A stretch of 64,000 bases of DNA from GCF_054482595.1 NZ_CM137008.1; one strand, 5' to 3'. Shown: positions 54,062 to 57,191, counted from the stretch's first letter. The notes: a model not told the origin generated them from the letters alone. Made by a program: numbers and translations.

Positions 54062-56284
54062 TTATTTTAACATTGATTTCACTTTCCGGGCAACCCGGCG
54101 AACCAGGCTGGTGCCTCGTTTTGCGCCTTGGACATGAATTGCTTCATACAGAGCATTAAAACGGTCATGGGCCCAGCCATCTCTTTGCTGAGAAATAAGA
54201 CCATCAACCTTATTATTTAAAAGTTGTAACTCGTTACTGACAGAATGACCACCATTGATGCTCCGCAAGCGATTCACTTCACTCTCAAGTTCTTGAATCT
54301 TCTCGAGGTAGGAAGGTATCAACCCCATTGCATAGTTATATTTAACATTCTCATCCATAAAAGGACGGAAACTGCGGTAGTTATTTTTACTCTTATTTCC
54401 ACTTAACAACATGCCGGAGTTTGCAACTCTATACCAAAATAGAGGTTCCGGGACGATTTGCAATTTATATCCCTGTAATGATATTTTGGCAAAAAACTCC
54501 CAGTCTTCATGACCTAAACCGTAATCTTCAGTAAATCCGCCTACTTTTTCAAAAACCTCTTTTCTGATCAGCGCATTAGCATCGCCAAAGCAGTTACTAA
54601 AGCTGGCGATATTTAAATCAGGCCCTAACGGAAGCCAGCAGTGCGTCATTTTACGGAACGGAGAAGGGAACTCCTCACCAAAAATAAGATCGCTTGGTGT
54701 GGTTAACACATCGGCCCCAGAGTTTAATGCTGCAGTAACAAACGTTTCTACCTCAAAAGGCTTAGCAACATTATCATCGTCCATAAACATCAGATATTCG
54801 CCAGAGGCGTGTCGCGCAGCCAAATTCCTTGCAGCACCCAGATAGTTATTAGAACTACGGACAATTTTCCAGCCTCGAGAGTTAAAATCATTCTCGATGA
54901 GATTTAAATAACGATGAGAATCTTCTGTCGTACTTCCATCATCAACCAAGATGACCTCAATATTTTGGTACGTCTGAGATTTTATTGATGCGAGTGCTTG
55001 CTGAAGCAAATGGTGACGTTCGAAGTGAGTTATACACACGCTAACTAACGGGCTGTTAGCTTCATCGATTTTCTTGAATGCGCGGTTGTTTTTTCGTTCA
55101 ACTGCGACAAACCAAGCTTCTTTAATATTGTCTTGTGATTCAGCAAGCCCTGGTTTTATATTTATATTTTTTAAGCGATAGTGGATTTTCCAGTATAAAT
55201 CGACAGGTGTAGGAATAAATAGAACTTCCGCATGATGCTCCTGCTGAATAAGCTCTGGAATTCCACCAACGTTTGAAGCGAGGAAATTAACGTTATTAAT
55301 CAAGCATTCATAAACAGTATAGGGTGAGTTTTCTACAAGTGATGGAATGATGACTAATACATTTTTTCTTTTTATATATTCATTAGCGTTGGTACGATCA
55401 TAGTCGCAGATGACATTAACTGCGAGTCCCAAATTTTTAGTCTGATTCATAATATAAGTAAATGAATCAGTTTTCCCCATGGTGACATTTTTTCCGAGGA
55501 AGGTTACTCCAGAAATGCTCTCTTTATCTTCATCAGATAGTTTTCTTAATGCACGCAGGAATATGTCAAGTCCTTTACGGGTTTCAAGGCGGCCGAAAAA
55601 TACAAGCTCAACGCCAGAAGCTGGCTTTTCATTTATTTTAACTGTAACATCATCTCTCGTCACAAACCCTTGAAATGGCTCGCAATTTAAAATTACATGA
55701 CGTTCTTCAGGAACATTCCAGTGCTTACTCAACATCCAATCAATTAAATACTGAGACGGACTAACAACTTCATCCGCCATTTCAACCACCATTTTCTCCA
55801 TATAATAGAGTTCAAGATGGTTCTGATCATATGGAAGCTGGTAATTACCTTCATCAGCCCATAACGTTGAACTGTGAGTATTTACAATGAACTTTGTATT
55901 TTCAAAATCCGTTCCATTCTTTTTGCTTAATAAAGTGTAATAAAGATCTGCCTGCCACTCACAAGAAATAACAGTGTCATAGATGTTATTTTCTTTCAAC
56001 CAGAGATAAATTGAATAACTTTTCCTTCTAAAATACGGTGCATCAATATTAATCTCTTTTATCAGTCCGGTTCTTAGCAGATTGATACCAAAGGTACTAT
56101 AAATACGTGACCAGTCGCTAAATTTCGATACAGATGATTCAGAATAGTCGCCACATGTATACAATACATCAACATCATACCCCTTTTTTGCCAAAGTAGT
56201 GGCAAGAGCAGTGAAAGCAGTACCAATACCGCCGTTACGGACAGGCCCCTCAATGTCCGGCGTCATTATAAGAATTTTCTTCAT
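54062..56284 (-). CDS. Two-domain glycosyltransferase (740 aa): N-terminal GT-B/GT4-like, central GT-A/GT2-like, C-terminal predicted coiled coil
   Basis: Intact ORF in about 27-30 percent GC DNA; GT4-like NGGIG and SNVGGIPE motifs; GT2-like VCITHFERHHLLQQALASIKSQTYQNIEVILVDDGS plus DDD motif; heptad-like C-terminal tail. Confidence 0.8.
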   Translation of the reverse strand: MKKILIMTPDIEGPVRNGGIGTAFTALATTLAKKGYDVDVLYTCGDYSESSVSKFSDWSRIYSTFGINLLRTGLIKEINIDAPYFRRKSYSIYLWLKENNIYDTVISCEWQADLYYTLLSKKNGTDFENTKFIVNTHSSTLWADEGNYQLPYDQNHLELYYMEKMVVEMADEVVSPSQYLIDWMLSKHWNVPEERHVILNCEPFQGFVTRDDVTVKINEKPASGVELVFFGRLETRKGLDIFLRALRKLSDEDKESISGVTFLGKNVTMGKTDSFTYIMNQTKNLGLAVNVICDYDRTNANEYIKRKNVLVIIPSLVENSPYTVYECLINNVNFLASNVGGIPELIQQEHHAEVLFIPTPVDLYWKIHYRLKNINIKPGLAESQDNIKEAWFVAVERKNNRAFKKIDEANSPLVSVCITHFERHHLLQQALASIKSQTYQNIEVILVDDGSTTEDSHRYLNLIENDFNSRGWKIVRSSNNYLGAARNLAARHASGEYLMFMDDDNVAKPFEVETFVTAALNSGADVLTTPSDLIFGEEFPSPFRKMTHCWLPLGPDLNIASFSNCFGDANALIRKEVFEKVGGFTEDYGLGHEDWEFFAKISLQGYKLQIVPEPLFWYRVANSGMLLSGNKSKNNYRSFRPFMDENVKYNYAMGLIPSYLEKIQELESEVNRLRSINGGHSVSNELQLLNNKVDGLISQQRDGWAHDRFNALYEAIHVQGAKRGTSLVRRVARKVKSMLK

Positions 56285-56381
56285 TGTAACCCTTCCTTTG
56301 TAACCTAGACTTTTCTATGATATTAGTGAATTGAAGTAGTGTAAGATAGCAGTCGGTAGCTTCTGTTAAACAGGATAAAAA

Positions 56382-57191
56382 ATGACCAATATGAAGTTAA
56401 AATTTGATTTGCTTCTAAAATCTTATCATCTATCTCATCGATTTGTCTATAAGGCAAACCCTGGTAATGCTGGAGATGGTGTAATTGCATCTGCGACGTA
56501 TGACTTTTTTGAACGAAATGCTCTTACCTATATCCCTTACAGAGATGGCGAGTGCTACAGTTCTGAAACTGATATTTTAATTTTTGGAGGCGGAGGAAAC
56601 CTGATAGAAGGATTGTATTCTGAAGGTCATGACTTTATCCAGAATAATATTGGGAAATTTCATAAAGTAATAATAATGCCGTCGACAATCAGAGGGTATA
56701 GCGATTTATTCATCAACAATATTGATAAGTTTGTTGTTTTTTGTCGCGAAAATATCACCTTCGATTATATTAAATCTCTCAACTACGAACCAAACAAGAA
56801 CGTATTCATTACTGATGATATGGCATTTTATCTCGATCTTAATAAATACCTGTCACTTAAACCCGTCTATAAAAAACAGGCCAACTGCTTCAGAACGGAC
56901 TCCGAATCTCTAACTGGAGACTACAAAGAAAACAATCATGATATTTCGCTCACCTGGAATGGCGATTATTGGGATAATGAATTTCTGGCGCGTAATTCTA
57001 CCCGTTGCATGATAAACTTTCTTGAAGAGTATAAAGTTGTCAATACCGACAGGCTGCATGTGGCAATTTTAGCATCTCTGCTTGGCAAAGAAGTCAACTT
57101 CTATCCTAACTCATATTACAAAAATGAAGCTGTTTACAATTATTCACTTTTTAATCGTTATCCAAAAACATGCTTTATTACGGCAAGTTGA
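56382..57191 (+). CDS. Putative polysaccharide pyruvyl transferase family protein (269 aa)
   Basis: AT-rich ORF divergent from the GT gene; N-terminal NPGNAGDG, GGGGNL and C-terminal TDRLHVAILASLLG motifs resemble CsaB/WcaK-type pyruvyl transferases; from memory. Confidence 0.6.
   Translation: MTNMKLKFDLLLKSYHLSHRFVYKANPGNAGDGVIASATYDFFERNALTYIPYRDGECYSSETDILIFGGGGNLIEGLYSEGHDFIQNNIGKFHKVIIMPSTIRGYSDLFINNIDKFVVFCRENITFDYIKSLNYEPNKNVFITDDMAFYLDLNKYLSLKPVYKKQANCFRTDSESLTGDYKENNHDISLTWNGDYWDNEFLARNSTRCMINFLEEYKVVNTDRLHVAILASLLGKEVNFYPNSYYKNEAVYNYSLFNRYPKTCFITAS

Follow-up and report, generated by a model that had tools for sequence, protein, structure and literature searches.

The wbbY-wbbZ gene pair at positions 54062–57191 of a 64,000-nucleotide stretch of Escherichia coli DNA (NZ_CM137008.1, assembly GCF_054482595.1; hereafter, the window) is, very probably and as judged from sequence, the O1-antigen locus of Klebsiella pneumoniae, carried on a module bounded by insertion sequences (ISs) within a tRNA-Ser(GGA) genomic island of E. 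coli that also holds a complete O2a cluster. An earlier note on this DNA had read the pair as a glycan-modification locus outside the canonical clusters; it proves to be a well-characterised cluster, the O1 locus wbbY-wbbZ of K. pneumoniae. The genes, the enzymes, the structure of WbbZ, the product, and the occurrence in E. coli are already known from publications, and the locus holds little new biology.

The first of the two genes, wbbY (54062–56284, minus strand), is an intact open reading frame (ORF) for a protein of 740 amino acids (aa). By identity, this protein is WbbY, the polymerase of the K. pneumoniae O1 antigen (D-galactan II), and it would be expected to be active in the window strain. 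It is 99.3%–99.9% identical over 740/740 residues to 740-aa K. pneumoniae proteins of the same 90%-identity cluster, which has 4,285 members (mainly 740-aa Klebsiella pneumoniae proteins), and more than 800 contigs encode the exact 740-aa sequence. Two glycosyltransferase (GT) modules follow one another in the protein: residues 18–373 match the Pfam families Glyco_transf_4 and Glycos_transf_1 (GT-B fold, GT4-type), and residues 415–654 match Glycos_transf_2 (GT-A fold, GT2-type). The AlphaFold2 model (predicted local distance difference test [pLDDT] 88.9; predicted template-modelling score [pTM] 0.88) likewise places a GT-B half before a GT-A half, with Foldseek leading from the former to GT4 enzymes (glycogen synthase, BshA, MshA, and PglA) and from the latter to GT2 enzymes. 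The DXD motif is D502-D503-D504, of which the first and last residues, D502 and D504, do not vary among 71 aligned homologues, and a residue check found E318 of the GT-B module intact. The GT4-GT2 fusion with a DXD motif that had been proposed is thus borne out by ORF, Pfam, AlphaFold2, and Foldseek alike.

The function itself comes from published work. WbbY is described, second-hand in PMC10629545, as a dual-GT O1 polymerase in which the N-terminal GT-B module adds alpha-1,3-linked galactopyranose (Galp) and the C-terminal GT-A module adds beta-1,3-Galp; an E318A mutant adds a single beta-Galp only (PMC10629545). Polymerisation of O1 repeats on an O2a acceptor has been shown both for K. pneumoniae WbbY and for a phage homologue (PMC10629545). 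A search of our phage collection returned no full-length WbbY homologue of the kind published for phage BK049963.1. The primary biochemistry of WbbY is reportedly that of Kelly et al. 2019 (JBC), whose abstract is reported to give the module assignments as well. Other searches returned generic relatives: Foldseek with the WbbY model found the common GT-B and GT-A folds and nothing more specific, a sequence search of the PDB found isolated GT2-domain relatives only, with no WbbY structure in the library, and NCBIfam gave sub-threshold generic GT matches for WbbY and none for WbbZ. The dual module itself (residues ~3–645) has a very wide distribution: more than 2,300 representatives reach E < 1e-30, and it is often found inside multi-module proteins of 1,000–2,700 aa, some of which carry several copies; no characterised member was found among these relatives in the resources searched.

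The second gene, wbbZ (56382–57191, plus strand), is an intact ORF of 269 aa that diverges from wbbY. Its product is, by the same token of identity, WbbZ, the phosphoenolpyruvate (PEP)-dependent pyruvyltransferase predicted to cap the O1 chain by linking pyruvate to its terminal beta-Galp as a 3,4-(S)-ketal, which yields glycoform O1b. It is identical at 268/269 residues (E 1e-183) to the crystallised K. pneumoniae protein deposited as 'WbbZ protein' (PDB 6X1L), the sole difference being a cysteine at position 58 here in place of arginine there. The match to the Pfam family PS_pyruv_trans (PF04230; E 1.6e-15) confirms the divergently transcribed pyruvyltransferase of the earlier note, and the motifs N29xG31D32, R122xxxT126, and H226 are all intact; the motif arginine is numbered 121 in PMC10629545 and 122 by our count. 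For the K. pneumoniae protein, pyruvyltransferase activity has been demonstrated in vitro and in vivo alongside the 6X1L crystal structure (PMC10629545). WbbZ is a globular protein of two Rossmann domains, without a coiled coil.

Both genes are part of a mobile, IS-bounded O1 module of ~4.28 kb (53959–58237) that is shared in one piece with Klebsiella and also contains a degenerate remnant of an IS256-family transposase (80-aa ORF, 57458–57700). Across a block of 4,282 bp (window 53956–58237), alignment to the chromosomal O1 locus of K. pneumoniae is gapless at 99.6% identity for four loci, and the module is 100% identical to sequence on at least 20 plasmids of K. pneumoniae, K. oxytoca, K. 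michiganensis, Raoultella ornithinolytica, and E. coli. The left border is an IS1 element (IS1B; 53191–53958, minus strand; 768 bp, with terminal inverted repeats) that truncates hsdM, and the identical IS1 junction occurs on the Raoultella plasmid p23_B. At the right border, Klebsiella homology ends at 58237 and ISKpn26 (IS5 family; 58238–59433, plus strand, ends approximate) begins, its 330-aa transposase ORF spanning 58305–59297. The guanine-plus-cytosine (GC) content of 54062–57191 is 38.0% (wbbY 39.1%, wbbZ 35.4%) vs 50.3% for the whole window. The block is foreign DNA with a GC content lower than that of its surroundings, and the earlier view of it as horizontally acquired holds; the GC figure of 27%–30% given at the time does not, nor does the description of the flanks as core genome, as everything from 41461 to the window end belongs to the tRNA-Ser island.

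The O2a (rfb-2a) cluster begins at the right edge of the window. In E. coli THO-010 and SMS-3-5, the sequence past position 64000 continues with wbbO (381 aa), wbbN (296 aa), glf (384 aa), a DUF4422 gene (wbbM, 630 aa), wzt (246 aa), and wzm (255 aa), all of them intact ORFs, followed by further IS debris and then a tyrosine integrase. The ATP-binding cassette (ABC) transporter is thus encoded ~6 kb beyond the window end, where the earlier note had suggested looking for one, and with a complete O2a cluster, wzm and wzt included, so close at hand, the suggestion that the locus might be a remnant falls away; the assignment to an ABC-transporter-dependent polysaccharide pathway, with pyruvate as a terminal modification, was right on both counts. 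The island Wzt consists of an ABC nucleotide-binding domain only (aligned residues 4–243 of 246) and lacks a carbohydrate-binding module (CBM). The O2a block (8,812 bp, running from window position 63078; 23197–32008 of the retrieved locus L002) matches the R. ornithinolytica rfb locus, which is his-linked, at 99.0%–99.2% identity, vs only ~72% DNA identity to a K. pneumoniae O1/O2v2 locus. A Raoultella-like O2a block beside a plasmid-identical O1 module makes the island a mosaic put together by ISs from two sources, namely a Raoultella-type O2a cluster and an O1 module of the type found on Klebsiella and Raoultella plasmids.

From these genes a pathway can be proposed for which the experimental groundwork was laid in Klebsiella and recombinant E. 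coli and which we infer for the window strain. WbbO and WbbN would build the adaptor on undecaprenyl-PP-GlcNAc, on which WbbM, at the inner membrane's cytoplasmic face, would polymerise the O2a repeat, [->3)-alpha-Galp-(1->3)-beta-Galf-(1->]. WbbY would then lengthen the non-reducing end of the O2a chain with the O1 repeat, [->3)-alpha-Galp-(1->3)-beta-Galp-(1->], its GT-A module adding beta-1,3-Galp and its GT-B module alpha-1,3-Galp, with uridine diphosphate (UDP)-Galp as the donor for both. On a fraction of chains, WbbZ would transfer pyruvate from PEP to the terminal beta-Galp as the 3,4-(S)-ketal (glycoform O1b), and Wzm/Wzt, which does without a CBM, would export capped and uncapped chains alike for ligation to the lipid A-core. 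Chain length would reflect the balance between polymerisation and export, with no coiled-coil ruler involved. The expected result would be an E. coli able to display a Klebsiella O1-like O antigen beside its own. The catalytic residues on which this depends, E318 and D502–D504 of WbbY and N29/G31/D32, RxxxT, and H226 of WbbZ, are all in place.

The earlier note had also given WbbY a heptad-rich tail and had proposed that a coiled coil of this kind sets chain length, and here the evidence points the other way. Heptad content was scored with a home-made proxy that reads a and d positions over 28-residue windows and compares them with shuffled sequences; by this measure, WbbY peaks at 0.49 vs a shuffled median of 0.53. 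In the AlphaFold2 model, the tail holds one confident helix of 22 residues (655–676), after which residues 679–740 fall below a pLDDT of 50, with low-confidence helices running to the basic C terminus ...LVRRVARKVKSMLK. Alignments of WbbY to 150 diverse representatives stop near residue 645, the dual-GT core being kept and the tail not conserved. A long coiled coil in WbbY is thus unconvincing, although a short oligomerising helix may be present at 655–676, the heptad score being a proxy and the AlphaFold2 model that of a monomer. The extreme C terminus may, in our own reading, be a membrane-associating helix; the in vitro work on WbbY used residues 1–722 (PMC10629545), a construct compatible with that idea. 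According to the literature, moreover, O1/O2 assembly has no terminator, no coiled-coil ruler, and no CBM coupling, export is independent of capping, and WbbZ serves only to diversify the antigen. The ruler mechanism is not applicable here, since O1/O2 systems lack a ruler, Wzt is a nucleotide-binding domain alone, and WbbY has no convincing coiled coil.

Some considerations weigh against taking the pair as a working O1 locus in this strain. We infer activity in the E. coli of the window from sequence identity and from experiments in recombinant E. coli. The O2a cluster is of the R. ornithinolytica type (99%) and far removed from its K. pneumoniae counterpart, and the compatibility of WbbY with a Raoultella-type WbbM is assumed; WbbY has been reported in complex with WbbM. 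In addition, kfoC, the last gene of the O2a cluster, is truncated by IS903B, and none of the retrieved genomes is base-identical to the window, THO-010 differing from it by 6 mismatches and 1 gap and then by 14 mismatches and 2 gaps. Much the same facts can be read to mean that wbbY and wbbZ are silent or useless cargo, an IS-riddled remnant that yields no O1 glycan in this E. coli, for instance because transcription is poor, because the products do not suit the Raoultella-type WbbM, or because the native O-antigen pathway competes with them. The region is certainly crowded, with IS1, the IS256 remnant, ISKpn26, two IS3-family elements, and IS903B, and two of its genes, kfoC and hsdM, are truncated; Table S2 of PMC10629545 includes E. 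coli in which the O2a cluster is disrupted or absent, or in which wbbY is disrupted (YD786), and the rfb block shares only 72% identity with that of a K. pneumoniae locus. Yet the seven required genes (wzm, wzt, wbbM, glf, wbbN, wbbO, and wbbY) and wbbZ are all intact with their catalytic residues kept, the island is conserved at ≥99.9% in unrelated E. coli and at two tRNA sites, Raoultella itself carries plasmid-borne wbbYZ, and cloned rfb-2a plus wbbYZ produced both O1a and O1b in E. coli DH5alpha (PMC10629545). On balance, silence of the locus seems unlikely, though it is the most serious of the competing explanations.

Two further explanations are far weaker. That the pair forms an uncharacterised decoration module, in which chain length is governed by a coiled coil on the GT4-GT2 protein and an unknown surface glycan is the target of a novel pyruvyltransferase, agrees with the domain architecture and the pyruvyltransferase fold as these were described, with the short helical tail of WbbY, and with the stalk helix of the kfoC family. 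Identity of ≥99% to characterised enzymes has already refuted it on novelty, however, and the tail of WbbY is short, of low confidence, and unconserved, the literature rules out a ruler in O1/O2 assembly, and the Wzt concerned has no CBM; we regard this explanation as very improbable. Still less credit can be given to the idea that wbbYZ act on a capsule or exopolysaccharide (EPS), whether colanic-acid-like or of group 2/3, instead of on the lipopolysaccharide (LPS) O antigen. PF04230 pyruvyltransferases are indeed common in capsule and EPS loci (PMC10629545, Table S3), but the island has no Wza/Wzc, KpsMT, or Wzx/Wzy genes, its neighbouring cluster is an O-antigen galactan cluster with wzm/wzt and glf, and direct evidence, both structural and immunochemical, links WbbY and WbbZ to the O1 antigen of LPS (PMC10629545, PMC4237132).

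Most of this arrangement has been reported before. Hsieh et al. 2014 identified wbbY-wbbZ as an unlinked locus required for D-galactan II (O1 antigen) in K. pneumoniae and noted that E. coli SMS-3-5 has proteins 99% identical to WbbY and WbbZ, namely EcSMS35_2255 and EcSMS35_2256 (PMC4237132). Kelly et al. 2023 (PNAS) then characterised both proteins biochemically and described wbbYZ beside rfb-2a in E. coli (PMC10629545). Their Table S2 lists THO-010 (O130, AP022540) and SMS-3-5 (O153, CP000970) together with ten other E. coli; for these two strains, it gives WbbY at 99.6% (vs NCTC11682), WbbZ at 99%, and the O2a cluster as 'Yes' (PMC10629545). The same authors propose that E. coli with wbbYZ might make two O antigens at once, a possible reason why E. 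coli O19 antisera react with Klebsiella O1 LPS (PMC10629545). Among complete E. coli genomes, 37 of 5,426 carry the wbbY-wbbZ block, three of the 37 on plasmids. A small minority of E. coli thus has the genetic capacity for Klebsiella O1a/O1b beside its own O antigen, with relevance for serotyping cross-reactions (E. coli O19 antisera) and for the specificity of O1 vaccines and antibodies, both of which points are made in PMC10629545.

Comparison with known systems places the locus closely. The K. pneumoniae O1 locus has the same genes in the same divergent layout, the same protein lengths (740 and 269 aa), the same IS256 remnant, and the same catalytic residues, at ≥99% protein identity and 99.6%–100% DNA identity over 4.28 kb. 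It differs only in host and location: there, the locus is unlinked to rfb, whereas in the window wbbYZ lie ~6 kb from the O2a cluster, in a tRNA-Ser island and between IS1 and ISKpn26, an arrangement already in PMC10629545. The wbmVWX genes of K. pneumoniae O2ac likewise direct the addition, prior to export, of a second polymer at the non-reducing end of O2a, which a PF04230-type pyruvyltransferase (WbmX) caps; they differ in employing two separate GT-A enzymes, WbmV and WbmW, for a GlcNAc-Galf repeat, and the wbmVWX proteins are not present here. More distantly, WbdA-WbdD of E. coli O9a and K. pneumoniae O3 and WbbB of K. pneumoniae O12 share ABC-dependent assembly, multi-module GT polymerases, and a cap at the non-reducing end. 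In WbdD/WbbB-type systems, however, a terminator on an extended coiled coil sets the length, and the CBM of Wzt needs the cap for export, whereas in the window WbbZ has no coiled coil, WbbY has a short tail at most, Wzt has no CBM, and the cap is optional. WbbZ, finally, shares its fold family and PEP-dependent transfer of ketal pyruvate with Pvg1p of Schizosaccharomyces pombe (PDB 5AX7) and with CsaB-type proteins (PF04230), but identity is low (~19% to Pvg1p, PMC10629545), and the acceptors and the position of the ketal (4,6- vs 3,4-) differ.

The second GT2 protein to which the earlier note had drawn attention is the product of kfoC', the last gene of the O2a cluster (63047–64000, minus strand), whose start lies beyond the window and which is cut at codon 377 of 434 by IS903B (62021–63077, minus strand; inverted repeats from 62021 and at 63060–63077). 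Residues 1–377 of the resulting 386-aa product align to 434-aa Raoultella proteins at 94%–99% identity, and the final nine residues and the stop codon come from the IS903B inverted repeat. In R. ornithinolytica too, at the his-linked rfb locus, the gene stands immediately after wbbO, as it does in an O1/O2v2-type locus of K. pneumoniae, where it precedes gmlCBA and hisI and the protein identity is 57%. The name kfoC is that of PMC7556023, in which the gene is described as being of unknown function; it is the final gene in every rfb cluster of the O1/O2 type. Disruption of kfoC by ISs is common in K. pneumoniae ST258.

In full-length members of the KfoC family, the GT-A domain is followed by a heptad-like linker, which is variable, and by a C-terminal motif, SLSW(K/R)xTKPLR, which is conserved. 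For a full-length orthologue, AlphaFold2 predicts a single helix of 97 residues (319–415; pLDDT ~90) and, after it, a terminal helix; the heptad score lies above that of 95% of shuffles. The coiled-coil C terminus that had been claimed for this protein is thus borne out for the family by its long stalk helix; the window copy, being truncated, lacks the distal stalk and the terminal motif. In its modelled architecture, KfoC resembles proteins that terminate chains or act as scaffolds in ruler-type systems. It would accordingly be conceivable, if rather doubtful in our estimation, that KfoC serves, so far unnoticed, as a capping, adaptor, or scaffold enzyme in a pathway thought to have none; were this so, the kfoC of the E. 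coli island would be a natural loss-of-function allele created by IS903B.

The island that carries these genes starts at the tRNA-Ser(GGA) gene serX (41373–41460, plus strand, found with ARAGORN), which is its integration site and left boundary, and runs past the window end for a total of ~41.6 kb, between serX (on the ghrA side) and ycdU. This extent (L002 1490–43198) was set from the far end, where 14 bp of the tRNA 3′ end (CCCCCTCACCGCCA) recur as a direct repeat at L002 43185–43198, just past the tyrosine integrase gene. The core flank within the window extends from flgK, by way of csgG and ycdX, to ghrA and is best matched by E. coli THO-010 (6 mismatches and 1 gap in 41.9 kb). The window is ≥99.9% identical to THO-010 and SMS-3-5, although the core flank of SMS-3-5 diverges upstream of 41366: in that strain, the same island (2 mismatches in 22.6 kb) is inserted at the other tRNA-Ser(GGA) gene, adjoining infA. 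The island thus occupies either of the two tRNA-Ser(GGA) genes, serX or serW.

Its first part is a CP4-44-like set of genes encoding a DUF4942 protein, CbtA/YeeU, a JAB protein, an antirestriction protein, a DUF932 protein, Ag43, and a YeeP-like GTPase. Within this set, a 326-aa ORF (49069–50049, plus strand) lies antisense to the Ag43 autotransporter gene (47287–50208, minus strand) and most probably arose by chance, the coding sequence there being GC-rich and repetitive. The set is followed in order by hsdM', the O1 module, ISKpn26, two IS3-family elements, IS903B, and kfoC'. The truncated hsdM (51641–53212) belongs to a type I restriction-modification system, and IS1 supplies its final six codons and its stop; the gene is an orphan, with neither hsdS nor hsdR after it. 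It appears that the IS1 insertion replaced the remainder of the restriction-modification system with the O1 module. The two IS3-family elements, recognised from ORFs and annotation, lie between the O1 module and the O2a cluster (59745–61784, minus strand), and one is intact and the other truncated.

The divergent intergenic region between wbbY and wbbZ measures 97 bp (56285–56381). In K. pneumoniae, part of the wbbY promoter lies within the 5′ end of wbbZ, and Hsieh et al. 2014, who mapped the start sites, retained the first 28 codons of wbbZ to keep that promoter (PMC4237132). On the minus strand of the window, promoter-like consensus sites occur at 56449–56420 and 56345–56317, but these are weak candidates; the scan for promoter and terminator consensus sequences was uninformative (17 sites vs 11.2 expected).

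Elsewhere, the O1 module is found in other settings. In E. coli HZDC01 (CP118681; 6490–12916 of the retrieved locus L006), it is inverted relative to the window and lies between two copies of ISKpn26, an arrangement that is an IS-mediated inversion; together with the mosaic origin of the island and its occupancy of serX or serW, this is an incremental addition beyond the literature examined. On the Raoultella plasmid p23_B and the E. coli plasmid pRHB33-C12_3, of which one is conjugative with an IncFII replicon and the other has an IncY replicon, the module lies near a trio of genes for a GtrA protein, a GT2 protein, and a large membrane protein (gmlABD-like). Genes of the gmlABD type serve in periplasmic side-chain galactosylation. 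Plasmids that carry the O1 module offer a ready route for the transfer of O1/O2 serotype determinants between genera.

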